Source of the DNA: Halorhodospira halophila SL1
GTDB taxonomy: Bacteria; Pseudomonadota; Gammaproteobacteria; Nitrococcales; Halorhodospiraceae
NCBI RefSeq assembly: GCF_000015585.1
Contig: NC_008789.1
Coordinates: 2,610,001-2,642,000, forward strand
Length of the DNA: 32,000 bases
Direction: 5' to 3'
In this document: in pieces, positions 2,443 through 32,000 of the stretch
Position numbering within the stretch: the first letter of the stretch is position 1
Layout: every line of letters begins with the position of its first letter
The notes under the pieces: model-generated
What the model was told of the DNA's origin: nothing
What the model saw: only the letters and a program-made list of their open reading frames with translations
Database searches by the model: none
Translations under genes and position numbers: made by a program

Positions 2443-5400
2443 CTACTCTTGAGGCACCTCCAGCGGGTACTCACTGTAATTCCTCAAATTGAGATCGGTG
2501 GCTTCGTGGCCTTGAGGCGCCAGCCGCGGGGCGATCCCGCCTCGCTCCCAGATATGCCACCCGAGCACATCTCCGTCGTCCGAAGCCCCTCCCGGTCGCT
2601 CGATCCCGCCATCGTGACAGGAGGTACAGGCAGCCGAGACCGGGCTCATCTTACGGTGCGCACCGATATCGTGGATCTCCGCGTCGCTGATGAAGTAATG
2701 GATTCCATACCAGTCCCCCGTCAGGGCCGTGGAGCCGATCACGCCATCTCCCATGGCTTCGAGCGAAACCGCTGCAGGGAAGTGGCAAGACCAGCAGCTG
2801 TCCTCCCCGGCCGGGAAACTCGTCTTGTTACGGAACTCGTCTCGGACCTGCAGCGGCTCCTGGCGAAAGCCACCGCCAGCCCGGCCCGAGGTATGGACTG
2901 CGTGGATGAGACGTTTGAAATCCGTCGCCTCTTCAAACTTCCCGTCGTGCTCACCAGGCATCTTCAGTTCATCGTAGAGAGCCTTCTGGTCCGCGCCGAA
3001 CGGCGACCCCTCGAATTGCGAGCGGTCCGGCCATGCGGTATCGGTCATATTCGGGGTGTGGCAAGTCACACAGACCTGCGGGTTGTTGGTGCGATTATCC
3101 CCATGGACCGAGAGCTGCATATGGCAGCTACGGCAGCCGAGAACCCCTTGGTTTTGCTGATCGAGGGGCACGTTCTCGTCGTTCACCTCAAACTGCACGA
3201 GTTGAGCACGACCGTCCGTCGCAGCGCGTGCCGGGGTCGACCCGGGCTGGATCTCCCACTCCTGCAGCGGGCTGCCGTCGAAGGCAAAGTCCTCGGCCTG
3301 ACTCGTCAGCCTCAACTCACGGGTATCAAGAATGCCGCCGTTACCGTCTTCAATGTCCCGGGTTATGGTTCCCTCGGCTACGGCAGTTGCAACGGCCCCA
3401 GAATCCGTGAAGTCGAAATCAGCGGCGCTGTAACCGGTGATTTCCTCCCAGCCGAGCTCGACCCTGAACTCACCGCCGCCGAGTTCTTCAACTACGCCAA
3501 CCCCGGTACCAGCAGGCTCACCGCCTTCATCCGTAGCGATACTGACACTGGCGGTCGGGGCGCCAGGCTGGCGATGATCACTAGTGGAGTGAGTGTAGTC
3601 TTTGAACCCTTCGTCCATCCAGGCGAAGAAGACGCTCAGATCCAAATCCTGGTCCCAAAGATTTCCGTTGGCAGCGTCCTCGACGTAGACGACCGCCTCG
3701 AAGCCATCTTCCGTTACCTCCGGAGGACCTCCGTTAAGACCCTCGATCACCACCTCAAAGCGGTCCGCAACCATAGCGTGACGGAGGCCCTGCAGGTGGG
3801 AGCTGAGGAGATGCGGGTCATCATCTACATCGTCACCGTCAAGCGGATCATACGCTCTCAACGGTGCAAGGCTTCCAGCGGGCCCGACGCCCACATGGGT
3901 CTCCAGGTCCTCATTTATCCAGTCGCTAAGGGGCTTCGACGCACCCGCAGCGTGGCACCCGGACGAGCAGGTCTCATGCGGGGCATAAGTCGTATCTTCT
4001 TCACCGTGGCGGTGGCTCTCCAGCCAGTCTGTGCCGACATCCAAGTAGTCTGCGCCCCACAGGGCCTCTACGGGCTCACTACTATCGTTTACGTGCCAGT
4101 ACTGATCATCGTGGCACGAACGACACGCCTGCACGTTGAAGACATCGTGCCAGTTGTCTCCCTGAGCGGTTACTTCGGCGGTATCGAGCCGGTCGGCGAC
4201 GTACCCCTCCTCAAGCCCGAAGTCTTCCTCGGCTAAGTGGTCCAGTAAAGCCGCACTATCCTCGCCCTGATGGCACTTCACACAGTTGGTGATGCCCTTG
4301 TCGAAATCCGTTCTCTCCGCAACGCCCTCGCGTGCGTCGGTATTCCAGATCCCATCCTGGCCGGGCGACGGACCCTGCGGGAACCGAACCGTACTCCAGT
4401 CGCTAGCCGCCGGGGCGGCGGCCAGCAGGTCCACCTCTGCATCTCCGTCCACGCCATAGGCGGGGAGATCAGAGCCACGGTGGATGCGGTGGACGAATTG
4501 CTTGAAGTCCCCGCTGCGCCCGGACGCTGCATAAATGTGGCCCGGGTTGTGGCAAGTGACACACTGCTCAACCTCGGAGCGGTTGCCGCCGTGCTGGGAA
4601 AAACCGTTGTGGCAGCTATTGCAGCTCTCCGTGGTAACGACATTGCGCACCGCCGGGACGTCATCCCGGTCCGTGGTCTGATGCATCATATCGACCGGAT
4701 CGTAGGCGCCCGGATCGATAATCGCCGCGTTCTCGACCTTCCCCTCGATCCACGCATAGTTCGCCACCGGCTCTGGGACGAAGTCGTAGGTCTCGTTATA
4801 GGCCGTGACCCCGCTCACCTCCAGCCCGAGTCGGTGGGTATGACGGGCATCGAACTCCACGACGAACTGATCATCCTCTGTGACAAATACGCCCTGGGGC
4901 AGCGCCGTGCCATCGGGCCACCAACAGATCACTTCCTGTGTATGGATGCCGTCTTCGGTGTTGGTCTCGTCGGTGCAGTTGATGTGCTGACCCAGGCCTC
5001 CATGATCCGAGATCTCCGTAAAGGCACCGCGCTCAATAGTGAGGGTCTCGTCTACGCCAGACGCAGTAATACTGACCTGTTCGTTCTCGCGCCATTCCCA
5101 GTTCGTGAGCTCCTGGTCCTCGAGATCGACTCGGAGCGTCTCGCCGTCCACCATCTCGACCCCCGCGGTGACCGGCTCCGGCGCCGGGTAAAGCACGGCC
5201 GTATCGGCGTCACCGGCCCGGAAAGGCACGGAGTCCGCCCTGTGCGGGATGTTGAAGTAGTTCTGCCAGTCGTGGCCGATTTCGTTTTCATCGATTTCAC
5301 CGGCCGGATCGTCGTCTTCTGAAGCGCGCAACCGCGGGGAAAGCCGCGCGAACGTCACGGTGAAGTCCCCGGCTTGTCTGTCCGACAGATCCTGGGACAG

Positions 5401-5778
5401 GCTGATGGTCAACTCCGGCCCATCGTTGTCTTCGAATTCGACACGCTCGATCAGATTCTCATCCTCACCGCCGGGTATCTGATCGCGGGTTGACCCCTGA
5501 GCCAAATCGTGGACCTCGTTGATCGGCTGTGGATCCTCACCGGGCTCGTGGCAGTCGGCGCACTCCTCACTTCGCGGATCCAGATCCTCGATGTCCGCCC
5601 ATTCACCCTCATGGAAACTCGTGGCCGCGGCGGTTCCACCATCACCGCCTTCCTCCACGATCTCCGTGGTCTCGTCGCGGTCACAGGCGGAGAGGGCCAG
5701 GACCGCTGCGATGGCGCAGCTGGTGACCAGGCCCCGACGCCCATACCGTGATCGTTGTGTTGCGATGGTCTCGGTCAT
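2443..5778 (-). CDS. Large multihaem c-type cytochrome lipoprotein, OmcA/MtrC-like (9 CXXCH plus 1 CX3CH)
   Basis: ATG 5778 with AGGAGGGGG SD (5783-5791). Signal peptide ends in the lipobox LSAC. Haem motifs: CADCH, CNSCH, CVTCH, CVKCH, CRSCH, CSSGCH, CRSCH, CVTCH, CWSCH, CTSCH. The module CxSCH-x5-HG(G/D)NR-x5/6-CVTCH(N/T)P is duplicated (4540-4623 and 3049-3135). Confidence 0.85.
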   Translation of the reverse strand: MTETIATQRSRYGRRGLVTSCAIAAVLALSACDRDETTEIVEEGGDGGTAAATSFHEGEWADIEDLDPRSEECADCHEPGEDPQPINEVHDLAQGSTRDQIPGGEDENLIERVEFEDNDGPELTISLSQDLSDRQAGDFTVTFARLSPRLRASEDDDPAGEIDENEIGHDWQNYFNIPHRADSVPFRAGDADTAVLYPAPEPVTAGVEMVDGETLRVDLEDQELTNWEWRENEQVSITASGVDETLTIERGAFTEISDHGGLGQHINCTDETNTEDGIHTQEVICWWPDGTALPQGVFVTEDDQFVVEFDARHTHRLGLEVSGVTAYNETYDFVPEPVANYAWIEGKVENAAIIDPGAYDPVDMMHQTTDRDDVPAVRNVVTTESCNSCHNGFSQHGGNRSEVEQCVTCHNPGHIYAASGRSGDFKQFVHRIHRGSDLPAYGVDGDAEVDLLAAAPAASDWSTVRFPQGPSPGQDGIWNTDAREGVAERTDFDKGITNCVKCHQGEDSAALLDHLAEEDFGLEEGYVADRLDTAEVTAQGDNWHDVFNVQACRSCHDDQYWHVNDSSEPVEALWGADYLDVGTDWLESHRHGEEDTTYAPHETCSSGCHAAGASKPLSDWINEDLETHVGVGPAGSLAPLRAYDPLDGDDVDDDPHLLSSHLQGLRHAMVADRFEVVIEGLNGGPPEVTEDGFEAVVYVEDAANGNLWDQDLDLSVFFAWMDEGFKDYTHSTSDHRQPGAPTASVSIATDEGGEPAGTGVGVVEELGGGEFRVELGWEEITGYSAADFDFTDSGAVATAVAEGTITRDIEDGNGGILDTRELRLTSQAEDFAFDGSPLQEWEIQPGSTPARAATDGRAQLVQFEVNDENVPLDQQNQGVLGCRSCHMQLSVHGDNRTNNPQVCVTCHTPNMTDTAWPDRSQFEGSPFGADQKALYDELKMPGEHDGKFEEATDFKRLIHAVHTSGRAGGGFRQEPLQVRDEFRNKTSFPAGEDSCWSCHFPAAVSLEAMGDGVIGSTALTGDWYGIHYFISDAEIHDIGAHRKMSPVSAACTSCHDGGIERPGGASDDGDVLGWHIWERGGIAPRLAPQGHEATDLNLRNYSEYPLEVPQE

Positions 5779-5820
5779 CGTTCCCCCTCCTGGCGGAGTC
5801 GTTCTTATCCGGTCCAACAC

Positions 5821-7866
5821 TCAGAACTTGAAGCCCACCGATCCGACGACCAGGTGAGCGGTGTAGTCGTAGGCCTCCCGCCCCATGAGCACGAATTCGC
5901 CGTCGTCGTCGGGGTCGGGGTCGGGGCCAAAGCCTTTCATCCAGTCCTGCTCTTCAAAGCGCTGACCGACGTAGGCGAGGCGCACCCATCCGGAGTCGGT
6001 GATCTGGTGCTCGCCGTAGAGCTGGAGCTGGGTGAGACGGGTCTCGAGGGTCGGGTAGCGCTGGTCGCCGTCGGGGTCGGCGACGAGGATGTCGCTGTCC
6101 GAGGTGGCGTAGAGCAGCTCGGTACCGAGCGTCCAGCGCTGATCGTTGTCGAGGCTCGTCTCGCCGCCGACCCCGAGGGTGAGGATCTCCTCCTCCTGGG
6201 TCAGGCTGCGGTCGTCACCGCCCTGGGCGCGATCCCGCTCCTCGTAGGTGAGGAAGGCGTAACCGCTGGTGGTCTCTACCGGGAAGTAGTCGGCGGAGAG
6301 GGTGACGGCGCTGCGGTCATCGCCCTCAAGGCCGGCATCCGAGTGCACATAGTCATCCTCGAGGTAAGTGAACTCGGCACCTAGAGCAAGCTCGGGGATA
6401 AGGTGGTAGGTAGCGCTCGCACCGATATCCAGCCGCGTCAAATCGGCCATGTGGTAAAGATCGAGCTCCGGAATATTATCGGCCAGAGCCGAGCCACCCC
6501 CGGCATAGCTCGCCCCCCACCGGTCCATATACGCACCGCGCACGGTTATGCTCAGATTGTCGGTGGGCTGACTGCGCAGACGGCCGCGGTAGGTGTCTTC
6601 GATGGTTTCGTCGTCGGCGTAGGTACGATCTTTCTCCTCGTACTGGTAACCGACCATCAGATTACTGCGCATCGGCAGCCGGAAGTCCGCATCGAACCCC
6701 GCCCTGTGGCGGGTCCAGTCGTGAACGCGCGTGGAGCGGTTCATGGTCGGCAGGTCGTCCCACTGAGCCGACTGGTTGTCCCGGTCCTCGTACTCGTACT
6801 CCGCCTTCACCCGTACGCGGGGGTGGAAGCGATGTGTACCCTGGAGACCTAGACGGGTCGTATCGATCCGGCCATCGAGGTTGTTGCCGAGGACATCCAG
6901 GACGTCCTCGTAGGCCGAATCGTCGATGAAGGACTCATCCTGCTCCGCGCGCCCGTAGACCAGGCTGCCGCTGACCGACGTGCCCGGTTGCAGGGCGTAC
7001 GCCATGGAGCCACTGAACTGATGGTAGCGGTTCTCCGGGGGCCGGGACAGGCGGTGCCGATCACCCTCCTCTAGATTGGTCCAGTCATCCGCTCGGGGGT
7101 CGTCGACGTCGAAAGAGTCTCCGCTGAGCTGCGTGAACTCGGAGAGGTGATAGCCAACCCGCGCCTGGAGGGCATCACCGGCGTACTCCGCACCGAGGTC
7201 GAGCTGGTCGGTGCGCTGATCCACCGGGGCGGGCATCTGGAACCCCCGCGGCGCCGCATCGCTCCATATGCCATAGCCGCGGTACTGGTGCCCCTCCTTC
7301 TCCTCGCGGCTGAAACCAACATCGAGTTTCCAGTTGTCGCCGAGGACGCGATGGGCCCCCACCGCTGTGCGTTCACGCTGGGTGCCCACTTCCCAGTCAC
7401 GGCTGTCGGTCTCGACGTCGCCGGTCACTTGAGGCAACCGCAGATCACCCCCCTCATCCCGCAACGGGCTGACCACATCGTGATCGTAAGATCGCGGCAG
7501 CTCGTCGTACTGCAGATGCAGCCCGTAGGACCCCTGTACCCCGTAGCGGCCACGCAGGCGCCGCGAATCCAGCCCCAGATCGCGCCCCTCAAGGCGGCCA
7601 TACCGTCCTTCCTGTTCGTCCTCGCCGCGATAGCGCAGATCAAGCTCCAGGGCCGGGTAGAGCCCGTCCTCGACGGGCCCCGTGTAGCGGCGGAAGTGGC
7701 TGTTGTCCTGATCTAGATAGCCGAAGCCGAGCCAGATCTCCGACTCCGTCGGACCCACAAAGGTCGCGGAGGACTCGGGCGTGCCGGCATCGGCGCCGGC
7801 CACGATGAATAATGCCGTCGCCGATAGCGCCAGTGAGCTTCCCAATTTGGTGGTGGTTCGAGTCAT
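5821..7866 (-). CDS. Outer-membrane beta-barrel protein, MtrB/PioB family (cytochrome-associated porin)
   Basis: 681 aa. Sec signal peptide (ALFIVAGADA). Alternating Y/G/D-rich beta-strand pattern throughout. C-terminal VGFKF with terminal Phe. Lies between two multihaem cytochrome genes with 31- and 42-nt gaps. Confidence 0.8.
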   Translation of the reverse strand: MTRTTTKLGSSLALSATALFIVAGADAGTPESSATFVGPTESEIWLGFGYLDQDNSHFRRYTGPVEDGLYPALELDLRYRGEDEQEGRYGRLEGRDLGLDSRRLRGRYGVQGSYGLHLQYDELPRSYDHDVVSPLRDEGGDLRLPQVTGDVETDSRDWEVGTQRERTAVGAHRVLGDNWKLDVGFSREEKEGHQYRGYGIWSDAAPRGFQMPAPVDQRTDQLDLGAEYAGDALQARVGYHLSEFTQLSGDSFDVDDPRADDWTNLEEGDRHRLSRPPENRYHQFSGSMAYALQPGTSVSGSLVYGRAEQDESFIDDSAYEDVLDVLGNNLDGRIDTTRLGLQGTHRFHPRVRVKAEYEYEDRDNQSAQWDDLPTMNRSTRVHDWTRHRAGFDADFRLPMRSNLMVGYQYEEKDRTYADDETIEDTYRGRLRSQPTDNLSITVRGAYMDRWGASYAGGGSALADNIPELDLYHMADLTRLDIGASATYHLIPELALGAEFTYLEDDYVHSDAGLEGDDRSAVTLSADYFPVETTSGYAFLTYEERDRAQGGDDRSLTQEEEILTLGVGGETSLDNDQRWTLGTELLYATSDSDILVADPDGDQRYPTLETRLTQLQLYGEHQITDSGWVRLAYVGQRFEEQDWMKGFGPDPDPDDDGEFVLMGREAYDYTAHLVVGSVGFKF

Positions 7867-7897: not shown

Positions 7898-8845
7898 TCA
7901 GCGCTTGAAGAAGGCGCCGCCCGGGTGATTGGAGCCGTGAACCTCGGAGTGGCAGTTGGTACAGCCCTGCCCCCGTGTCATGAACTGCCCCTGCGACAGG
8001 CCTTCGTGATCCGGCCCAAGCAAATCACCGGGATGACCTGTGGTGACGTGACAGGACTGGCAAAGCTGGGCCGTGCGCGCCTCCAGCATGTTCGGGTGGA
8101 TCGAGCCGTGCGGGTTGTGGCAATGGGTGCAGTCTTCGGCCACCGGCTGGTGCTCCCAGAGGAACGGTCCCCGATACTCCGCGTGGCAGTTATGGCAGGT
8201 CTCATTCACCCCCCCGCCGCGGAGCATCGCGTGGCCAGTGGTGCCGTGGGGGTTGTGGCAGTCCGTGCACTCCACCTGGCCTTCCCGGACCGGATGGTGG
8301 TGCGGCCGGTTGAAGTCCACCCGACGCTCCTGGTGGCAACTGCTGCACAGCGTCAGCTGATCCTCCTCGCGGAGCAGGGTGTCGTTGTTGCTGTGCATGT
8401 TGTGGCAGTCGACGCAGGCCATGTCCTGGAACTCGTGAGCGCCACCATCCCAGTGCATGCGGTCCCCGCCGCTGTGGCAGTCCAGGCACGTCTCGTTGGC
8501 CTGGCTGGTGCTCACGTCTTCGCCGATCTCGAAGAAGTGCTCCCAGCCGTCGCCGTGACACTGGTAGCAGTAGTTGCCATCCTCTCGCGTCTGGCCCGCT
8601 GGTGTGCGTGGATCGGACCCCACGGCGTGGGGCGTCTCCTCCATGCGGCCGATGTGGGCGCGCAGATCCTCGGCACGGCGCTCGGCCACAACCGGTGAGA
8701 GACCACGCACCTCCTCGACGAGCTCCTCGAGCTGTTCGGGATCAAGGTCCTCACCCCCAGCCACCGGGGCGATCACCAGCAATGCGAAACAGGCCGCAGC
8801 GCACCCAAACGGCATCAGACGCCGGATCAGTCTTTGCGCGAACAA
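7898..8845 (-). CDS. Periplasmic multihaem c-type cytochrome, MtrA/DmsE/PioA/MtoA family (nine CXXCH motifs)
   Basis: Nine CXXCH motifs. The C-terminus CTNCHSEVHGSNHPGGAFFKR is the family hallmark. Preferred start is TTG 8845, 6 nt after AGGGAGGAG (8852-8860), which gives a normal signal peptide (FAQRLIRRLMPFGCAAACFALLVIAPVAG). An alternative is ATG 8815. The track start at 8911 overlaps the predicted promoter. Confidence 0.85.
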   Translation of the reverse strand: MFAQRLIRRLMPFGCAAACFALLVIAPVAGGEDLDPEQLEELVEEVRGLSPVVAERRAEDLRAHIGRMEETPHAVGSDPRTPAGQTREDGNYCYQCHGDGWEHFFEIGEDVSTSQANETCLDCHSGGDRMHWDGGAHEFQDMACVDCHNMHSNNDTLLREEDQLTLCSSCHQERRVDFNRPHHHPVREGQVECTDCHNPHGTTGHAMLRGGGVNETCHNCHAEYRGPFLWEHQPVAEDCTHCHNPHGSIHPNMLEARTAQLCQSCHVTTGHPGDLLGPDHEGLSQGQFMTRGQGCTNCHSEVHGSNHPGGAFFKR

Positions 8846-8895
8846 GGCGCGCTCCTCCCTATCGATGGAGTTTTGATTGTTATCAACGCCGGGAG

Positions 8896-8910
8896 GCAAA
8901 AGGCGGGCCA
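8896..8910 (-). promoter_or_regulatory. Candidate sigma-54 (-24/-12) promoter of the cytochrome-porin operon
   Basis: The minus strand reads TGGCCC-GCCTT-TTGC, with GG and GC exactly 12 nt apart as in the TGGCAC-N5-TTGC consensus. It lies about 50 nt upstream of the TTG start at 8845. Confidence 0.55.
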
Positions 8911-8989
8911 AAATGGGCCGACCGGCGTAACGGCCCCGTCATACGGGGGTTTCGATACGATTCCCGGGGACAAGACAGAGCCCTGTCGG

Positions 8990-9038
8990 GACCGCCGCGC
9001 GGTCAGGCGCTGCGCAGCGTGGTCTCAGGCTGCGCAGC
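8990..9038. promoter_or_regulatory. Array of palindromes, candidate enhancer (UAS) sites for the adjacent sigma-54 activator
   Basis: The 10-bp perfect palindrome GCTGCGCAGC occurs twice (9009-9018 and 9029-9038), exactly 20 bp apart, inside an imperfect 20-bp tandem repeat (9001-9020 / 9021-9040). It is preceded by GACCGC-CGC-GCGGTC (8990-9004). The array lies 80-130 bp upstream of the -24 element. Confidence 0.45.
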
Positions 9039-9130
9039 CGGAGATCGGTTGGGACGGCCGGCCCCTTGTGCCACCACGGCTGGGTTGATTAATGTCAACC
9101 CATTAGGGAACCGGTCGCTGGGAGGGATTC

Positions 9131-10495
9131 ATGCGCGGATGCGTCCTGGTCGTGGATGACCATCGCGAGGTGGTCTACGCCGTCCGGCGGCTGCTGCAGA
9201 GCCGCGGGCTGGAGGTGATCAGCGCCCCCTCCGCCGCCGAGGCGGAGCCGCTGGTGCCCCGGGCAGACGCGCTGATCCTGGATATCCAGCTGGAGCAGGA
9301 CAACGGCCTGGCGCTGCTTCAACGCCTGCGCAGCGCCGGGGATGAGACACCGGCGGTGGTCCTGTCGGCGCACACCTTCCCCGACAACGTGGTCGAGGCG
9401 AGCAAGCGCGGCGCGATGCAGATCCTGGCCAAGCCCATCGAGGCCGAGGCCCTGGTCGGGGCCGTGGAAGAGGCGTTGAGCCAGACGCACTCCGACGCCT
9501 CGGCGTCCGCCCTGAGCGCCGAGGCCCACGATGTGCTCGGCACCTCGGCGGCGATGATGGAGGTCTTCAAGGCCCTGGGCGTGGCCGCGGCCAACGACCT
9601 CAACGTCCTACTCACCGGCGAAACCGGGGTCGGCAAAGAGGTTTCGGCGGAGCTCGTCCACCGCCACTCCCACCGGGCCGACGGCCCCTTCGTGGCCATC
9701 AACTGCACCGCCATGCCCGAGAGCCTCCTCGAGGCCGAACTGTTCGGCCACGCCAGCGGCGCCTTCACCGGCGCCAGCCGGGCCGCCGAGGGCAAGGTGG
9801 AGGCCGCCGCCGGCGGCACCCTGTTCCTGGACGAGATCGGCGACATGCCGCTGGCCTTTCAGGCCAAGCTGCTGCGCTTCCTGGAGGACAAGCGCTTCTA
9901 CCGCCTGGGGGAGTCGGCGCCGCGTCACGCCGATGTGCGCGTGATCGCCGCCACCAACCGCCAGCTGCTCGGCGCGGACGCCAGTCAGTTCCGCAGCGAT
10001 CTCTACTACCGCCTGGCGCAGATCCCGGTGCACATCCCGCCGCTGCGCGACCGGTTGGAAGACGTGCCGGCGCTGATCGAGGTCTTCATCCGGGCGGCCA
10101 ACCAGGAGATGGGGCTGGATATCCACGGTATCACCCCCGAGGTCCGCCAACAGGCCCAGGGCCACAGCTGGCCGGGCAACGTCCGCGAGCTCAAGAACGC
10201 CGTCTACCGCGCCGCAGCGAAGCGCCAGCGGGGGCTGATCGATACCCTGGAGCTGGCCGGCGCGGCCGCCGAACCCGCCGGTGACAGCGACTTCGACACC
10301 GCCCTGGACCGCGCTCTGGACCGTGCCCTGGCCCAGGACCGGCTGCCGGAGCTGCTCAACGACCTGGAGCGCCGGGCCGTCCAGCGCGCCCTGACCCACT
10401 ACAACGGCAACAAGAGCCGGGTGGCCGAGGCCTTGAACGTCTCCCGCAACACCCTGCGCGCCCGGCTGCAGGCCATGCAGGAGCCGACGGATTGA
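9131..10495 (+). CDS. Sigma-54-dependent response regulator (NtrC family bacterial enhancer-binding protein)
   Basis: Receiver domain (VVDDH, LILDIQ, AKP). AAA+ domain with Walker A GETGVGKE, the GAFTGA loop and ELFGH. C-terminal Fis-type HTH ([16 protein letters not shown]). SD GGAGGG at 9121-9126. Confidence 0.9.
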
Positions 10496-10515
10496 GGTGC
10501 TGGCTGCCACGCAAC

Positions 10516-11970
10516 ATGGCCGTCCGGCTCGGCGCCACCTTCCTGCTGGTGACCCTGATGGTCGCCCTGCCGCTGACGCTGTGGTTCGACCACTACGCGA
10601 GGGGCATGATCGAGGCCGGCGTCGAGCGCGCCGTCGAGGGGGCCGACGCGCGGGTCATCCTCGACGCCGCGGTGGTCTCGGAGGCTTTCGATCGCGTGCG
10701 CGGCCTGGCGCTGCTGGTGGTGGGGCTCAGCGCCCTGCTGGCCGCCGGCGTCGGGGCGCTGATCGCGGCGCGCTGGCGGACGCGGATGCGCAGTATCGTC
10801 GAGCAGGGCCACCGCCGTGCCCGGCGCGCCCAGGGCGACGGCAAGCAGCCCGCGCGCTGCCCCGGCACACCCCGGCCACGCCCCGGCGAGGACGAACTGG
10901 ACGCCGTCGAGCGGCAACTGCTCAACACCGTCGACCAGCTGGGCCGCTCGCAGTGGCTGCTCGACAGCGTCGAGGACCTGGTGATGCTGGTCGACGCCGA
11001 TGGCACCATCCGCCACGGTAACGCCGCCATCGGCACACACTGCGCGAGTTGTCCGGTTCCCGACTGCATGGGGGCCACGGTGCCGGATCTCCTCGGCGGC
11101 GGACTGTGGCTGCGCATCCGCACCGGGATCGAGCGCGCCGAGACCGGGACCTTCGAGCAGGAGGTGCGGCTGGACGGGCGGTCCTGGCCGGCCCTGGTCT
11201 CCTACCGCCGTCTCGGGGAGCTGACCCTGGTCAAGATCACCGACCTGAGCGAGTACCGCCGGCTGAACGAACATCTGGAGAAGCTCCAGGCCCTCTCCAC
11301 CCTGGGCGAGATGTCCACCGAGCTGGCCCACGACATCAAGAACAGCATCGTGCCGGTGCGCCTGCTCTGCGAGGTGGCCCCGCTGGAGGCCGAAGACCGG
11401 CAGGCGATCTTCCGCTCGCTGGATCACATCCACGAGCTGGTCAATGACTTTATGGCCTTCGGCTGCGGGCGCAGCAGCGAACCGCGCAGCGGCGCTCTCA
11501 CCGAGATCCTGCAGAGCTGGACCACGGTCCTGCGCAACGAGGCCCAGGCCAAGGGCGTCTCCCTGACGGCGGCGTTCGCCGACGCGCGGGTCGAACTGCC
11601 GGGGGGCTTTCGGATCGTCTACGCCAACCTGGTGCGCAACGCGGTCCAGGCCGTACCCGCCGGCGGCCAGGTGTGGGTGGACGCCCGAGTGGATCGCCGC
11701 GACACCCTGGTGCTGCAGGTGGCGGACAACGGCCCGGGCATCCCCGAGGCGCTACGCGAGCGGCTGTTCGAGCCCTTTGCCACCAGTCGCGCCGACGGCA
11801 CTGGGCTGGGACTGCCACTGGTCCAGCGCTATGTGCAGGAGGCCGGCGGTGAGGTGGTCTGCGACTCCACCCCCGGCACCGGGACCAGTTTCACGGTCCA
11901 CTGGCCGGGGGCCGGGGAAACCACAGGCCGTACACTCACCCACCACGCCGGGATCGCCTCTGCGGGCTGA
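10516..11970 (+). CDS. Sensor histidine kinase (two TM segments, PAS-like domain, HisKA, HATPase_c)
   Basis: H-box ELAHDIKNS, N-box NLVRNAVQA, G1 DNGPGIP, F-box FEPFAT, G2 GTGLGL. Start is ATG 10516. An alternative is TTG 10492, overlapping the regulator stop. Confidence 0.85.
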   Translation: MAVRLGATFLLVTLMVALPLTLWFDHYARGMIEAGVERAVEGADARVILDAAVVSEAFDRVRGLALLVVGLSALLAAGVGALIAARWRTRMRSIVEQGHRRARRAQGDGKQPARCPGTPRPRPGEDELDAVERQLLNTVDQLGRSQWLLDSVEDLVMLVDADGTIRHGNAAIGTHCASCPVPDCMGATVPDLLGGGLWLRIRTGIERAETGTFEQEVRLDGRSWPALVSYRRLGELTLVKITDLSEYRRLNEHLEKLQALSTLGEMSTELAHDIKNSIVPVRLLCEVAPLEAEDRQAIFRSLDHIHELVNDFMAFGCGRSSEPRSGALTEILQSWTTVLRNEAQAKGVSLTAAFADARVELPGGFRIVYANLVRNAVQAVPAGGQVWVDARVDRRDTLVLQVADNGPGIPEALRERLFEPFATSRADGTGLGLPLVQRYVQEAGGEVVCDSTPGTGTSFTVHWPGAGETTGRTLTHHAGIASAG

Positions 11971-12155: not shown

Positions 12156-12166
12156 GGAGATGGGTT

Positions 12167-12823
12167 TTGCGAACCGTCGTCTACGTCGATGGGTACAACC
12201 TGTACTACGGACTGCTGAGAAAAACCGCGTTCAAGTGGTTGGATCTCGTCGTTCTGTTCCGCGATCACGCCCTGGATCCGCAAGTCGATCTGGTGGAAGT
12301 CCGATACTACACCGCCCCAGTGCTTGGGCGAATGTGCGACGACCCCAAATCACCCCAGCGCCAACGGCGCTACCTACAGGCGTTGCGCACGATGCACCCC
12401 GAACGACTTTCCATCATCGAGGGCAAAATCATCGCAACGACCCCCTTCAAGCGCCTAGCCCAACCTATCCCAGAGCGTCCGGATCTCGAGCGAGTTCAGG
12501 TCCTTGACTTCCATGAGAAAAAAACCGATGTCAACCTCGCCGCTGACTTAATCGCCGGGTCTTGGGTTGGTTCGTATGAGCAGGCGGTTGTGTGCAGCAA
12601 CGACACAGATCTCGACGCGGCACTTGCGACCGTACGCCGCTATCAGCCCAGTATCCGCCTAGGCCTCGTCGCGCCCATCCCCGGCCATGATCACCGGCGC
12701 ATCCCAGCCGACCTAGCCAAGCACACACATTGGTCCAAAACCCTTAGCCCCGTACACCTGAGCAACGCTCAACTACCTGAACGCATCCCACACTCAACTC
12801 TTCGAAAACCCGATACATGGTAA
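12167..12823 (+). CDS. NYN-domain (PIN-like, LabA/DUF88-type) protein, putative RNase
   Basis: N-terminus RTVVYVDGYNLYY is typical of NYN proteins. Later KKTDVNLAADL and VVCSNDTDL acidic motifs. Start TTG 12167 lies 6 nt after GGAGA (12156-12160). The track start at 12026 would overlap the promoter and hairpins. Confidence 0.7.
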   Translation: MRTVVYVDGYNLYYGLLRKTAFKWLDLVVLFRDHALDPQVDLVEVRYYTAPVLGRMCDDPKSPQRQRRYLQALRTMHPERLSIIEGKIIATTPFKRLAQPIPERPDLERVQVLDFHEKKTDVNLAADLIAGSWVGSYEQAVVCSNDTDLDAALATVRRYQPSIRLGLVAPIPGHDHRRIPADLAKHTHWSKTLSPVHLSNAQLPERIPHSTLRKPDTW

Positions 12824-12981
12824 GTGGTTTGGCCCTGATAGGCTCGGGTCCATCCCGAGCCACCCGCCACTCTGGCACCACCCGATCGCCATGGACACCA
12901 GCCCATGAAGACGCCCGGAACCCGCCCTGCTGACGCCCTGATCCGGAACGCTGGATGGCGCGGTACTGCCGAGGTCCGCCG

Positions 12982-13569
12982 ATGAGGCGCAGGTGGGCGA
13001 CGACGGCCGGCTGTCTGCTGGTGGCCGGGGTGGCCGCGGGCGGCAACGCCGCCGCGGACGAGCGCGCCTACGGCGGGGTCCTCGAAGACGGCTGGCGGGT
13101 AGCCGTGGTCACCGGGACGCTGGCGGTATCCGACGGCACCGATACCGGAACGGCCCGCACCGTGGCCCTGGCCAACGGGGCCCATGTGATCAACGATCGT
13201 GGGCGGTATTGGGACTTCGAGGTCGGCCTGGCCTACACCCAGACCGCCGCCCACCCGAAGGGGGCCGGCGGGGAGACCGTCCGCGTCAACCAGACGGACG
13301 CCTACTACCAGGCGCGGCGGCTATTCGGCGAGTCGCCCTGGTTCCTCGGCTGGCACGTGGCGCTGACGCGCACGAGCATCCAGCCGGCCGACACCGGCTC
13401 CGATCGTGACCTGGGATTCACCGCCGGGGTCATCGCCGGCTACCGCGGGTCCGGCCGTTTCGGCTTCCAGGTCGACGCCCTGGTGACGGACCCCGATCCG
13501 GAGTTTGGCGACCTGACCCTTGGCTACGAGACACGCCAGTACCGCGCCTCGCTGCAGTTTCGCTTCTGA
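12982..13569 (+). CDS. Small outer-membrane beta-barrel protein (OmpW/OMP_b-brl-like), function unknown
   Basis: ATG 12982 lies 7 nt after GAGG. Signal peptide RRRWATTAGCLLVAGVAAGGNAAA. Alternating hydrophobic strands. C-terminal SLQFRF. Confidence 0.55.
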   Translation: MRRRWATTAGCLLVAGVAAGGNAAADERAYGGVLEDGWRVAVVTGTLAVSDGTDTGTARTVALANGAHVINDRGRYWDFEVGLAYTQTAAHPKGAGGETVRVNQTDAYYQARRLFGESPWFLGWHVALTRTSIQPADTGSDRDLGFTAGVIAGYRGSGRFGFQVDALVTDPDPEFGDLTLGYETRQYRASLQFRF

Positions 13570-13578
13570 CCCCCCGGG

Positions 13579-14412
13579 CTAAAGGGTCCCTTCGATACCC
13601 ACGTGCACCCCGTCTTCCCGGCGGGGCCCGGCCATCTCGATGCTGCGGGTCAGGATGTCCGCGGCGCCGTCCCGCGTATCCACGACGGCATCCAGCTCAT
13701 AGGAACCGGCCGGATCCAGCCGCCAGCCCCCGCCCAACTGAAGCGGGCCACCGGTATCGCCGAGCTCACCAACCAGCGCGCCGTCCTCGGCCCGCAGCTG
13801 AGTGGTCAGGCCGCCGAGCTCAACGTATTCGTCAACAGTGACGGCGGCGTCGTGCCAGGCGAGGCGGCCATCGACCTGCTGCAGGCGACCTCCACGGTCG
13901 ACCCGTAAGGTGTCGATGGCAAAGGCGAACGTCCCGGCGAGCAGCACTTCCTCGCCGAACTGGGCGGCCAACCGGCTCCACGGCGCCGCCGGGAAGCGGC
14001 CGTGGACATCGCGCAGGCTCAGCCCGCCGGCGGCGAGGGTCGCCCGCCCCTCGGCGAACCCGTCCCCCATTGAGGCCTCGATCGTTGCCTCCAGCCGACC
14101 GGTGAGCAGCGCCGCCGGACGGACGCGCCAGCGGATCTGCTCCGCCTGCAGGTCTGTCGTCCCGACCTGGATGCCCTGGCCGTCCCAGACGGTACCGTCC
14201 AGAGTGCCCACTTGCACCTCGGGCGGCACGGACAGGTAGCGCTCGGCCAACGACCAGGCGTGGGCCGCCGGCCAGTGCGCCAGGAGGAAGGCGCAGTAGG
14301 CACCGAGGCCCAGCACCGTGAACCCCCAGAATCGTCGCCCCGGCCACCTGAGCCGGGGCGCACCCCGGCTTCGACGTCGCAACAACCGGACCCACGGGCG
14401 GGCGGCGGTCAC
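13579..14412 (-). CDS. gspN: Type II secretion system protein GspN
   Basis: 277 aa with a single N-terminal TM segment. The GTG start overlaps the gspM stop (GTGA). Its position after gspM is as in canonical gsp operons. Confidence 0.65.
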   Translation of the reverse strand: MTAARPWVRLLRRRSRGAPRLRWPGRRFWGFTVLGLGAYCAFLLAHWPAAHAWSLAERYLSVPPEVQVGTLDGTVWDGQGIQVGTTDLQAEQIRWRVRPAALLTGRLEATIEASMGDGFAEGRATLAAGGLSLRDVHGRFPAAPWSRLAAQFGEEVLLAGTFAFAIDTLRVDRGGRLQQVDGRLAWHDAAVTVDEYVELGGLTTQLRAEDGALVGELGDTGGPLQLGGGWRLDPAGSYELDAVVDTRDGAADILTRSIEMAGPRREDGVHVGIEGTL

Positions 14413-14933
14413 GTGCCCACCTCCAGGGTCAGGCGCACGTTGACCAAGCCGTCCTCTTGCGTCCGCTCCACAGTCAAGGCATCTACCTCAACGCCGGCGG
14501 CGCGCTGCAGGCCGTCGAGCCAGTTCATGAGCTCATCGAAGGGGACCCGGTCCATCCACACCCGGAGGGTGCCATCCCCGTCCGGCTGCACCCGGCTGAG
14601 CTGATCATCGATCCCGGCCTCCCGGGCGGCCCGATCCACCAGGCTGAGCAGGGATCGCTCGTCGGTGACCGGCTCTGCCGAACCGTTATCCCCATCATGG
14701 GCGTGGATCTCTTCCGCGGCCGAGCGCATCCAGGCCAGATCCTGGCGCTGCTCGGCGACCTGAGCTTGGAGCTGGTCCCGACGCTCGGTCAACGGCTCCC
14801 AAACCGCCACGTACGGCACCACCACCAGCACCAGCAAGCCGCCGCTACCCAGCAGCCAGCGTTCCCGAGGGTTACGCGCCGACCAGAAGCGTTCAGCCTC
14901 GGCGCGGAGCTGCTGCAGCGCCTCGCGGATCAC
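14409..14933 (-). CDS. gspM: Type II secretion system protein GspM
   Basis: 174 aa. N-terminal FWSARNPRERWLL plus a TM segment, typical of GspM. The GTG start overlaps the gspL stop (GTGA). Confidence 0.8.
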   Translation of the reverse strand: MIREALQQLRAEAERFWSARNPRERWLLGSGGLLVLVVVPYVAVWEPLTERRDQLQAQVAEQRQDLAWMRSAAEEIHAHDGDNGSAEPVTDERSLLSLVDRAAREAGIDDQLSRVQPDGDGTLRVWMDRVPFDELMNWLDGLQRAAGVEVDALTVERTQEDGLVNVRLTLEVGT

Positions 14934-16162
14934 GCCGACTCCTCTTCGCGAATGACCAGGCGACCGTCCACGCGACCCTCCCGCGCCGACGCCGAGCGGA
15001 TCTCGACGGCCAGGCCGGCGTCGCCCTCCAGCGCTCTCCGCAGGCCCTCCAGGGTCTCGATGTCCACGGTATCCAGTTCCACCTCCAGGCTGCCGTCACG
15101 CAGCCGCAGGGTCCGCACCCGGAGTCCGTCGCCGGCCAGGGCGGGTGCCGCCTTGCCCAGCAGGCGGGCGAGGTGCCCGCCCCCCTCACCGCCGCGATCG
15201 CCGCGTATCGTGCGCAGGTGGTGCTCCATCTGCACCCGCGGATTGACCACCCGACCTTCCGGGAAGGTCTCCCGGTAGACCTGCTCGATCTCCGCCGTGA
15301 GCTGTTCAGCCTCGCGTTCCAGCCGCTGGACCTCCAGCCACTGCAGCGCCCCCTGACCGAGCAGCCAGACAGCGAGGAGCGCAGCCGCTGGGCGTAAGGG
15401 CCGCCATAACCAACCCCAGCGCTCGCGGCGGGCGTACGGCCCCTGGCGCAGGTCAACGGCGGTGCGCGGGTGGTACCAGGCGGCCAGACGAGGCAGGAGA
15501 TCGGCATCCACCGCCCGCGACTCCAGCTCCGGCGCCGGCTCCGCCGCTGCCGCCGCCGACTCCAGGCGCGTCTGCAGCGCCGCCGGTGCCTGCAGCGTGA
15601 GGCGCTGCGGCGGTCGCTCGGCAACGGCCAGCGCGGCCTCGAGGGTCACCGGCGCCGAGGCCGGCTCCAGGGCAAAGCCGTCCGCCCCGAGGGCGAGCAC
15701 CACCTGGTTGCGGTCCGCCTCGACGCGCCAGTGCCCGGAGTCGGCCGGGAGCAGCCCGTTTTCCGGGACCAGGGCGTCGACCTCCAGCCCCAGGGATGCG
15801 AACTCATCGAGCCACGCCTGCATGGCAGCGTGCTCGACGACGGCGGCGTGCACGCCGCCGTCCGCATCGATCCGCCGGATGGCGAAGTGCAGCGCCTCCA
15901 GATCGCTGGTCAGCTGCTCCTCCAGCGCGTACGGCAAGGCCTGGAGCACGCGCGGACGGCGCCGAGTGGGCAGCCAGACCCGGGTCACCAGGACCTGCGC
16001 CCCGGGGACGACGCCGACACAGCGCCGGCCAGCGCGGTGGGGTGCGACCACCTCCGGCCGCAGAAGACCTTGATCCAGGATCGCGCCCCCCTCGGCAACG
16101 ACGGCAAAGCGATACCGGCCATCGTCGCACCGCGGGAGCTGGATCAGCAGATACTCGGGCAT
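14930..16162 (-). CDS. gspL: Type II secretion system protein GspL
   Basis: Start MPEYLLIQLP at ATG 16162. Conserved LQALPYALEEQLTSDLEALHFA segment. Single TM segment in the C-terminal third. Confidence 0.85.
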   Translation of the reverse strand: MPEYLLIQLPRCDDGRYRFAVVAEGGAILDQGLLRPEVVAPHRAGRRCVGVVPGAQVLVTRVWLPTRRRPRVLQALPYALEEQLTSDLEALHFAIRRIDADGGVHAAVVEHAAMQAWLDEFASLGLEVDALVPENGLLPADSGHWRVEADRNQVVLALGADGFALEPASAPVTLEAALAVAERPPQRLTLQAPAALQTRLESAAAAAEPAPELESRAVDADLLPRLAAWYHPRTAVDLRQGPYARRERWGWLWRPLRPAAALLAVWLLGQGALQWLEVQRLEREAEQLTAEIEQVYRETFPEGRVVNPRVQMEHHLRTIRGDRGGEGGGHLARLLGKAAPALAGDGLRVRTLRLRDGSLEVELDTVDIETLEGLRRALEGDAGLAVEIRSASAREGRVDGRLVIREEESA

Positions 16163-16193
16163 GGGGTCACCGTACCATCGCCACTCGGCCCCG

Positions 16194-17054
16194 CTAACAG
16201 GGGCGGAGACGGCGCACCACCACTTCGCCGCTCGGGGCGTGCACCACACTGCACTGGTGGTGGAGGCGGCCGTCCACCTCCAGCCTCAGGGCCACCTGGA
16301 CGTAATCGCCCAGGCCCTCATCCCCCGGGTCCATATCCTCGGGATCCGGCAGGTTGTAAGCCTCGCGCAACCGTTCCGGCGCAGCCAGGGCGTTGAACCG
16401 GGTGCCCACCTCCGGTAACGCAGCCACATACGGCTCCAGGATGCGGTATGAGTCGGCATCCACGCCGCGGATCTGCAGCAGTTCACTGGGCACCGCCAAG
16501 GGCCGATTGGAAGGGCGGTAGGGGGGGGCCTGCCGGCTGTACCAGTCGTCTTCCACCTCGGGATCAGCCCAGTCGCGCAGGGCACGGATGACCTCATCCG
16601 GGTCCAGCCGGAAGTCGCCGTGGTCGCGGTTAAGGGCCTCGACCAGTTCGATGAAGCCGACCTCGGTCTCCTCATCCTCCTCGTCGATGAGGTTATTGAG
16701 GTTGATCCGGCAATGGAGATCTTCCAGGCGCACCTCCACGACGGCTCCCCCCACCTCTGTAGTAAAAGGCGGTGTACGACAGTCTTCGTCGAGCATCTGC
16801 GCCGCCTGATCGGTGTCGATCTGCGCCTCCTGGACCGCCTCGGCGGCCAGCGCCTCGACGCTCATGGCGTGGAGCTGCGCCTGGCTGGCCGCGTGGCTGG
16901 TCTGCGCCCGGCGCAGGTCGATCTGGTGACTGGCGGTCAGCGAGACAGCCGCCACCGAGGCCAGTGCCACCACCAGTAGGGCCGTGATCAGCGCAACACC
17001 GCGCTGAGTCCAAGGTGGAGTCTGAGGGCCAGGAATATCGCCATACGCTCTCAT
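16194..17054 (-). CDS. gspK: Type II secretion minor pseudopilin GspK
   Basis: QRGVALITALLVVALASVA prepilin-like N-terminus and GspK-type body. Start is ATG 17054 (GTG 17060 also possible). Confidence 0.8.
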   Translation of the reverse strand: MRAYGDIPGPQTPPWTQRGVALITALLVVALASVAAVSLTASHQIDLRRAQTSHAASQAQLHAMSVEALAAEAVQEAQIDTDQAAQMLDEDCRTPPFTTEVGGAVVEVRLEDLHCRINLNNLIDEEDEETEVGFIELVEALNRDHGDFRLDPDEVIRALRDWADPEVEDDWYSRQAPPYRPSNRPLAVPSELLQIRGVDADSYRILEPYVAALPEVGTRFNALAAPERLREAYNLPDPEDMDPGDEGLGDYVQVALRLEVDGRLHHQCSVVHAPSGEVVVRRLRPC

Positions 17055-17271
17055 GGTCACTCAAGCTTACACCGAGCGTCATGAAGCCGTCTCGATCCGG
17101 TCGCAGGGCGGCGTCGCCGTGCAGCGACAATCTCGAGCACTGCAGATCAGCAACTTAGCGCGCGCTCCCTGCCGTAGTGTTGCCTGACGGCGACAAAACG
17201 GGGCGCCCCGGCCTGCCTCCGCTCCGGGCCGCCGATCCTATCTTCTTGTTTTCCCGGTTTTTTACAGATGT

Positions 17272-17288
17272 TGGCACGCACCCTGCTT
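17272..17288 (+). promoter_or_regulatory. Candidate sigma-54 promoter upstream of the acidic secreted peptide gene
   Basis: TGGCAC-GCACC-CTGC-TT with GG/GC spacing of 12 nt. It starts 99 nt upstream of ATG 17371 and follows a T-rich tract (17241-17263). Confidence 0.5.
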
Positions 17289-17370: not shown

Positions 17371-17616
17371 ATGCATCACAAGCACTGGATCGCCGGTCTC
17401 CTGGCCCTGATGGTCGGCATGGGCTCCACCGCCGCCATGGCGTTCGACACCGAGGGCGAGGCAGACGACCAGTGGGAAGAGCCGGCTGATGACGGCTTTG
17501 AGGATGACGGCTTCGAAGACGACGGCTTCGAGTTCGAGGAGCAGGACGACGAGATCGACCCCTGGGACGAGGATGCCGACGATACTGATGCCGGCGACGA
17601 GGAGCTGGACTTCTAA
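17371..17616 (+). CDS. Small secreted polyacidic protein (81 aa) with three DDGFE repeats
   Basis: GGAGG lies 6 nt before the ATG. Sec signal peptide ends in AMA. The 57-aa mature part has 32 Asp/Glu and no Lys/Arg/His. A strong terminator follows. Confidence 0.65.
   Translation: MHHKHWIAGLLALMVGMGSTAAMAFDTEGEADDQWEEPADDGFEDDGFEDDGFEFEEQDDEIDPWDEDADDTDAGDEELDF
17488..17532 (+). repeat. 3 x 15-bp tandem repeat encoding DDGFE
   Basis: gatgacggctttgag / gatgacggcttcgaa / gacgacggcttcgag. Confidence 0.9.
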
Positions 17617-28908: not shown

Positions 28909-28924
28909 TGGCACGCATCATGCT
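28909..28924 (+). promoter_or_regulatory. Candidate sigma-54 promoter of the TorF-family porin gene
   Basis: TGGCAC-GCATC-ATGC-T with GG/GC spacing of 12 nt. It starts 101 nt upstream of ATG 29010. Confidence 0.55.

Positions 28925-31284: not shown

Positions 31285-32000
<716 letters not shown>

Follow-up and report, generated by a model that had tools for sequence, protein, structure and literature searches.

A probable composite sigma-54 control region for an mtrA-mtrB-mtrC-HiPIP operon in Halorhodospira halophila

An electron conduit operon and a divergent pair of regulatory genes

We examine here a 285-bp spacer (8846-9130) in a window of 32,000 nucleotides from Halorhodospira halophila SL1 (contig NC_008789.1, positions 2,610,001 to 2,642,000 of the forward strand), which separates an operon for an outer-membrane electron conduit from a divergent pair of regulatory genes. 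The organism is a purple sulfur phototroph, and the activator encoded by the first of these regulatory genes is 100% identical to an H. halophila entry. All positions below are those of the window unless another locus is named. The operon runs on the minus strand and begins with an mtrA-like gene (7898-8845), whose 315-amino-acid product is a periplasmic multihaem cytochrome of the MtrA/DmsE type with a signal peptide; it has a TTG start codon and a strong ribosome-binding site, GGGAGGAG, at 8859-8852. The product matches TIGR03508 (DmsE family) at 233 bits, against a cutoff of 192, as well as Paired_CXXCH, and only 9 CXXCH motifs were counted in it. Next comes the gene for an mtrB/pioB outer-membrane porin (5821-7866; PF11854, 600 bits; TIGR03509, 344 bits against a cutoff of 240), so that both the MtrA/PioA-type cytochrome and the MtrB/PioB porin pass their profile cutoffs. 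It is followed by a gene (2443-5820) for an mtrC/omcA-like outer-membrane multihaem cytochrome of up to 1125 amino acids (PF22113, 143 bits), which at 194 bits falls just under the TIGR03507 cutoff of 209. Directly after mtrC lies the last same-strand gene of the operon, a PioC-like HiPIP gene (1991-2413; PF01355, 74 bits). No intrinsic terminator was found 3' of the operon in 1850-2500. Because it holds both an MtrC-like cytochrome and a HiPIP, the four-gene operon is a hybrid of the Mtr type, with its surface MtrC, and the Pio type, in which PioC is a HiPIP. The HiPIP gene after mtrC hints at electron uptake rather than metal reduction. This gene was missing from the preliminary description of the locus, although a taxonomic paper had already noted an MtrABF cluster with a neighbouring HiPIP gene in Hlr. 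halophila (PMC8877833).

On the plus strand, the gene at 9131-10495 encodes a response regulator of the NtrC family. The preliminary description had recognized it as an activator with an intact GAFTGA loop, and we agree: the protein also has the receiver aspartate (Asp51), Walker A and B motifs (FLDEIGD) and a Fis-type helix-turn-helix (HTH), and it matches PF00072, PF00158 (215 bits), PF25601 and PF02954. Judged by these features it carries every hallmark of a group-I enhancer-binding protein and would act as a sigma-54 activator. Its nearest solved structures are NtrC1/NtrC4 and LuxO. Because it scores under every NCBIfam equivalog cutoff (for NtrC, 384 bits against 558), we would place it in an unnamed orthologous group inside the NtrC family and do not take it to be NtrC itself; the putative recognition-helix region is conserved across orthologues. 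The second gene of the pair (10492-11970, plus strand), also called correctly before, encodes a membrane histidine kinase of PAS-HisKA-HATPase architecture; the protein has two transmembrane helices, and its PAS domain is cytoplasmic. The frame of the kinase gene overlaps the end of the activator gene, starting 4 nt before the activator stop codon, and the pairing of the two genes is kept in the orthologous loci described below. The PAS domain contains a CxxCx5C motif (C-A-S/C-C-P-V-P-x-C, residues ~190-201) that is conserved in the Halorhodospira orthologues, and its last cysteine, Cys192, is the only one invariant across all eight kinases. This cysteine-rich motif may be a redox or metal sensing site.

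Within the spacer, a sigma-54 -24/-12 element (TGGCCCG-CCTT-TTGCC) occupies 8895-8910 on the minus strand, and the motif TGGCCCGCCTTTTGC, which had been proposed at 8910-8896, is present there with the correct GG-N10-GC spacing. It has two mismatches to TGGCACG-N4-TTGCW and is the sole TGGC-N7-TTGC match in the 32 kb window, where 1.22 would be expected by chance. It had been described as sitting about 50 nt before mtrA, and the motif does end 50 nt short of the TTG, with the ribosome-binding site in between; measured from the TGG to the TTG start codon (8845) it is 65 nt, and from the GC of the -12 element to the ribosome-binding site 36 nt. Given this placement, we infer a transcription start near 8884 and predict an mtrA leader of ~39 nt. 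Scanning with a sigma-54 weight matrix that only approximates the published consensus did recover the site, but at 11.6 bits and only as the fourth best in the window, behind three much better sites. The chance of finding an equally good site in the 285-bp spacer in the right orientation is ~0.02, and taken alone the site is suggestive, not compelling. No sigma-70-like promoter was found on either strand in 8700-9300. A further TGGCAC at 9071-9066 (minus strand) was rejected as a promoter, as it has no GC at the -12 position.

Upstream of this element the preliminary description had pointed to a palindrome, GCTGCGCAGC, repeated 20 bp apart. The exact 10-mer does occur at 9009-9018 and 9029-9038, and nowhere else in the 32 kb. 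The promoter-proximal copy, a candidate activator site, is centred at about -130 from the predicted start, and the distal copy, a candidate enhancer site, at about -150, the two being separated by two helical turns and lying on the same helical face. A third palindrome that had been listed beside them (GACCGC-CGC-GCGGTC, 8990-9004) is present as described, but it is no longer symmetrical in L081 (below), a relative with a 90% identical activator, and we reject it as a functional element and treat it as best explained by chance. The spacer also holds two elements absent from the preliminary description, namely canonical FixK/FNR boxes (TTGA-N6-TCAA). Box 1, TTGATTGTTATCAA, at 8873-8886, overlaps the predicted sigma-54 start, where it covers ~-2 to +12, and its centre lies 34.5 bp from the mtrA start codon; box 2, TTGATTAATGTCAA, at 9085-9098, is centred 39.5 bp 5' of the activator ATG.

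Conservation of the control region and the choice between readings

We compared the genomic context of twelve loci with an orthologous activator, counting the window among them and L173/L174 as one. Activator orthologues show 52-90% identity, against ~40% for paralogues, and a scan of the genome collection with generic AAA+ motif patterns returned only paralogues of 35-41% identity, none with Mtr neighbours. In seven other orthologous loci a strong sigma-54 site lies 52-137 nt 5' of the adjacent cytochrome gene or operon. In six of the seven (L081, L083, L086, L089, L091 and L173/L174) this site came top when sites were ranked over 9-15 kb per locus on both strands; in L082 it came second. Three of the loci come from Halorhodospira. 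In Halorhodospira sp. 9622 (L081; activator identity 90%) TGGCCTGCCTTTTGCT lies 52 nt before the mtrA of a divergent mtrB-mtrA cluster; in H. halochloris (L083; 67%; 54% G+C) the perfect consensus TGGCACGCGAATTGCT lies 68 nt before the mtrA of a divergent mtrC-mtrB-mtrA cluster; and in L082 (81%) TGGCCCGGTGATTGCT, at 5537-5522 of that locus, precedes by 130 nt a divergent gene for a Cyc2-like cytochrome-porin. Elsewhere the gene order changes. An assembled genome (L086; 70%) has TGGCCCGCCAATTGCT 57 nt before a divergent, truncated multihaem mtrA-like gene. Thioalkalivibrio thiocyanodenitrificans (L089; 57%) has TGGCAAGGTCATTGCT 102 nt before a cymA-like/EB_dh/mtrA/mtrB operon that lies ~900 bp downstream of the activator-kinase pair, itself placed after a ccm operon, and a metagenomic locus (L091; 52%) has TGGCATGACATCTGCA 137 nt before a rearranged version of the same four genes. 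In L173/L174 (57%) TGGTATCGAACTTGCA stands 55 nt before the gene for a 1015-amino-acid MtrC-like cytochrome that follows the kinase gene. In 2.8 Mb of control loci the frequency of sites scoring 14.5 bits or more is 0.9-3.4e-5 per position, which puts the chance per 200-nt upstream window at ~0.002-0.007 for each independent lineage. The core claim of the preliminary description, that the mtr operon has a sigma-54 promoter on which the divergent two-component activator works from upstream dyads, is thus upheld by comparative genomics in a different genus and in different gene orders.

As a negative control we looked at 80 diverse metagenomic MtrA loci, and most of these have neither an activator nor a good site 5' of mtrA. 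A few exceptions (L122, L136 and L140) pair a site with a non-orthologous activator (34-44% identity), and because of them we suggest that sigma-54 control of MtrAB-type clusters evolved more than once. Two of these are metagenomic MtrAB clusters (L122, 1614-8920; L136, 17-5945) that lie beside non-orthologous activators (34-35%) with kinases, and their sites are TGGCATGTCTATTGCT and TGGTATAAACTTTGCA.

A real sigma-54 promoter could nonetheless be served by some other activator, with the adjacent pair controlling, for example, cytochrome c maturation or distant genes and adjoining mtr only incidentally. Orthologous pairs without adjacent cytochrome targets in L084, L087, L090 and L172 would fit such a view, as would the position of the pair after ccmI of a ccm operon in L086, L089, L090 and L173 and the absence from L082 of the palindromic core discussed next. 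Yet the ccm genes of those loci are not preceded by a sigma-54 site, and in eight of the twelve loci the pair adjoins an outer-membrane or periplasmic cytochrome gene with a top-ranked sigma-54 site even though gene order is rearranged. The recurrence of the core at a fixed distance in three lineages also speaks against it, and we regard this explanation as improbable.

The preliminary description had proposed looking for the palindromes upstream of orthologous clusters, and the outcome was mixed: the exact core, CTGCGCAG, is found in L081, L083 and L089, but L086 and L091 have only variants (CTGCGGCGCAG and CCTGCGCGGG, respectively) and L082 has none. Relative to the TGG of the promoter, the core lies at -127 and -107 in both the window and L081, at -124 in H. 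halochloris with a degenerate second copy ~20 bp closer, and at -121 in Thioalkalivibrio with a one-mismatch second copy, CTGCGCAC, at -89. By our own estimate from base composition, the probability that an exact 8-mer recurs by chance to within ~10 nt of this place is ~1e-3 per lineage. The core was not found near the other three sigma-54 sites of the window. We consider it probable, though not established, that the twin palindromes are the enhancer of the adjacent activator; a mutant form of the dyads would carry CTATATAG in place of the core.

It could also be argued that the repeat acts as a nucleic-acid hairpin, such as a leader stem-loop, an attenuator or a cruciform, and that no protein binds it as an enhancer. 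Positions 9000-9048 do fold as a 13-bp stem of -16.9 kcal/mol (z = -4.0 against shuffles), but any two copies of a palindrome can pair, and the fold follows automatically from the repetition. A T-run is missing, and a search of 8700-9300 against Rfam gave no match at E <= 1. The palindromes also lie upstream of the predicted sigma-54 start and hence outside the mtr mRNA. Across loci it is the motif that is kept and not the stem, with copies 32 bp apart in L089 and a degenerate second copy in L083. We find this alternative very hard to credit.

The FixK/FNR boxes raise the main rival, in which a CRP/FNR-family activator of the FixK type works at a sigma-70 class II promoter, as at pioABC, and the -24/-12 element is fortuitous or secondary. 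The two canonical boxes are the only ones in the 32 kb and both lie in the spacer, and they are kept in Halorhodospira relatives: in the window, L081, L082 and L083 the only matches to TTGA-N6-TCAA per locus are all in the spacer 5' of the activator gene. Box 1 is kept in L081, where it covers +1 to +14, and L083 has a degenerate copy slightly further downstream, between promoter and start codon. There are precedents as well. In pioABC, FixK boxes are found at -44.5 and -137.5 and the leader is 177 nt long (PMC3050613); if transcription on the minus strand of the window began ~42 nt downstream of box 2, the leader would be of comparable length, ~200 nt. Shewanella mtr is under CRP (PMC4417206). 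What this rival lacks is a promoter: read by hand, neither strand offers a -10-like hexamer at class II distance from either box, the sigma-70 scan came back empty, and a class II start set by box 1, whose centre is so close to the start codon, would fall inside the gene. The non-Halorhodospira loci L086, L089, L091 and L173 are without boxes yet keep the sigma-54 site. Alternatively, the role of the boxes may lie in control of the activator operon or in repression of the sigma-54 promoter. One further candidate, CAAAAT at 8909-8914 as a -10 for box 1 toward the activator gene, was rejected as weak, and it is not conserved in L081. On balance we judge this rival unlikely, and the boxes are more naturally read as an addition to sigma-54 control.

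We consider the 285-bp spacer likely to be a composite region that controls mtrA-mtrB-mtrC-hipip, in which a sigma-54 promoter is worked by an enhancer-binding protein, with probable CRP/FNR input. The sigma-54 polymerase would bind the -24/-12 element at 8910-8895 and be held there as a closed complex. The PAS kinase would sense a signal and phosphorylate the NtrC-type activator; because the PAS domain has the conserved cysteine-rich motif, our guess is that this signal is redox. The activator would then oligomerize on the two CTGCGCAG dyads, loop to the promoter and open it by means of ATP and its GAFTGA loop, so that a specific signal probably turns the conduit on, as had been proposed before. 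A protein of the CRP/FNR family is probably a second input to the control region through the two boxes, one at the start site and the other just 5' of the activator gene. Judged by its position, box 1 is better suited to a repressor or roadblock than to an activator, and acting as a repressor or roadblock is also the simplest role for it; from this we infer the sign of the effect and treat the box as a candidate repressor or co-regulator site.

Several points weigh against this composite region. The window site itself is only moderate, having C in place of the A of TGGCAC and again at -11, besides its modest score and rank. In L082 the activator HTH is identical and the sigma-54 site is present, but no CTGCGCAG lies within 330 nt. 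For a dimer with Fis-type HTH domains, a palindrome of 8 bp is unusually short, and a WATCAA-N4-TTR search found no IHF site between enhancer and promoter. Four loci (L084, L087, L090 and L172) have the orthologous activator but no adjacent cytochrome gene or good site; the sequence of L172 contains a run of N, and its 404-amino-acid open reading frame looks spurious. Because of these four loci the activator may have other or additional targets, and the label "dedicated" that the preliminary description gave to the regulator is unproven, as some orthologous activators have no cytochrome neighbour.

Possible exchange of conduits and the wider gene neighbourhood

The L082 locus has no mtrAB. The 411-amino-acid product of its divergent gene (4157-5392 of that locus, minus strand) has a signal peptide, only one haem motif (CSACH) and the terminal residues ...RYDIGF. 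The C-terminal region is a beta-barrel in an AlphaFold model (pLDDT 60, pTM 0.64), and a Foldseek search with this barrel retrieves 16-stranded porins (OmpT, OmpF, OprP) at E ~1e-10. The modelled architecture resembles a Cyc2-like fused cytochrome-porin. This likeness is one of architecture only: homology to Cyc2 was not found, the protein has no Pfam or NCBIfam matches, and its few relatives are all unnamed. Going by these gene neighbourhoods, the regulator appears to stay in place as the conduit changes.

Since the same regulator adjoins different conduit types, its distribution suggests a regulon built around electron exchange with the outside and not around one protein family. It is tempting to go further and view the activator-kinase pair as a master switch that governs outer-membrane electron exchange in haloalkaliphilic Gammaproteobacteria whatever the conduit, an idea that we find attractive but hold only tentatively. 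The non-homologous targets, MtrAB(C)-HiPIP, CymA-EB_dh-MtrAB, an MtrC-like cytochrome alone or a Cyc2-like fusion, would have been exchanged during evolution, while the kinase with its cysteine-rich PAS domain would respond to a cue common to them all, for example redox state or Fe(II). An FNR/FixK-type protein would add a gate in Halorhodospira by occupying the sigma-54 start site.

The other three sigma-54 sites of the window lie before other genes. The gene for sigma-54 itself, rpoN, lies outside the window, and these sites, together with the presence of an activator gene, are indirect support for sigma-54 in the organism. A consensus site, TGGCACGCCTCCTGCA, at 31695-31710 on the plus strand is 75 nt 5' of a PII gene (glnB/glnK) starting at 31786; this is a classical NtrC target, and the site indicates that sigma-54 is probably active in H. 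halophila. The strong site TGGCACGCATCATGCT (28909-28924, plus strand) is 85 nt 5' of a gene of the Gcw_chp family (PF09694; 29010-29672). Another strong site, TGGCACGCACCCTGCT (17272-17287, plus strand), precedes a gene at 17371-17616 for an 81-amino-acid secreted peptide that is extremely acidic (D/E-rich), and both this site and the small acidic-peptide gene are kept in L081 (9766) and L082 (9767).

The block of mtr and regulator genes is flanked by type II secretion genes, with gspE at 448-1917 on one side and gspN, M, L and K at 13579-17060 on the other, and type II secretion genes are likewise adjacent in L083 and L084. In Shewanella, MtrC and OmcA are exported by type II secretion, and the linkage seen here may be functional. 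After the kinase gene lies an NYN-domain gene (12163-12823) of visibly lower G+C, a possible insertion. A gene for a small outer-membrane beta-barrel protein (12955-13569) also lies 3' of the kinase gene; a similar gene comes after the kinase in L081 and L082 and further downstream in L086. Outside the H. halophila group (L086, L089, L090, L091 and L173/L174) the pair usually lies directly beside a ccmABCDEFGHI operon.

Significance and comparison with known systems

Microbial iron reduction, photoferrotrophy and the uptake of electrons from electrodes rest on conduits of the Mtr, Pio and Mto types. The regulators known for the Mtr and Pio systems act globally, namely CRP in Shewanella and, in Rhodopseudomonas, FixK and RegSR. 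The comparisons above support the view that the control region of H. halophila applies the classical scheme of sigma-54 and its activator to a new kind of target. If this is true, the kinase, the activator and the sigma-54 promoter together would be the first specific signal-transduction handle on such a conduit. The proposal names two proteins and a 40-bp DNA segment, and with these the cue for an outer-membrane conduit in a phototroph becomes testable. A tight off/on sigma-54 promoter would also be usable for engineering. The preliminary description did not recall sigma-54 control being reported for the Mtr or Pio systems, and we too found no paper linking Mtr, Pio or Mto to sigma-54 or RpoN in a literature that leaves out most subscription journals.

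The classical version of the scheme is NtrBC acting at glnAp2, where, as proposed here, a kinase works through an activator of receiver, AAA+ and HTH domains on two dyads 100-150 bp 5' of a -24/-12 promoter. The NtrC site is TGCACC-N5-GGTGCA, and the palindromes of the window are unlike it; their target is respiratory or phototrophic and not nitrogen assimilation.

In its genes, the operon can be set beside pioABC of Rhodopseudomonas palustris TIE-1, another anoxygenic phototroph, which shares the decahaem MtrA/PioA, the MtrB/PioB porin and the HiPIP (PMC3050613). The presence of two canonical TTGA-N6-TCAA boxes upstream in both cases makes the parallel striking. Transcription of pio, however, begins at a mapped class II promoter of the sigma-70 type, where FixK is bound at -44.5, whereas in the window the boxes do not lie at class II distance from a -10 element, one of them covers the predicted sigma-54 start, and the locus also encodes a sigma-54 activator and a kinase. 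In Shewanella oneidensis MR-1, too, a protein of the CRP/FNR family controls an mtrCAB-type cluster: PmtrC and PomcA are CRP-dependent sigma-70 promoters with class I CRP sites near -61 (PMC4417206); these have no sigma-54 element and no adjacent two-component system.

The AioXSR and ArxXSR systems, found also in relatives such as Alkalilimnicola, place a kinase and an AtoC/NtrC-type regulator beside a bioenergetic operon that has an RpoN promoter and an upstream regulator site, gtaacaattcaagc (PMC5908839). The window has neither the X component, a periplasmic binding protein, nor aio or arx genes, its target is mtrAB(C)-hipip, and its proposed motif, CTGCGCAG, is a different one. Among the orthologous loci, L086 alone has a gene for a PhnD-like binding protein, which lies between the activator and kinase genes.

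A precedent for this mode of control in extracellular electron transfer comes from Geobacter sulfurreducens, in which BccR is needed to induce cbcBA, a component of that process (bioRxiv 10.1101/2021.04.15.440034). The cbcBA target is an inner-membrane bc-type quinol oxidoreductase, whereas that of the window is an MtrAB-type outer-membrane conduit. BccR and the window activator belong to unrelated orthologous groups in different phyla, BccR has no adjacent kinase, and no FixK/FNR boxes are described there. What the two loci share is their layout, in which a sigma-54 activator of the response-regulator type is divergent from a cytochrome operon with a -24/-12 promoter.

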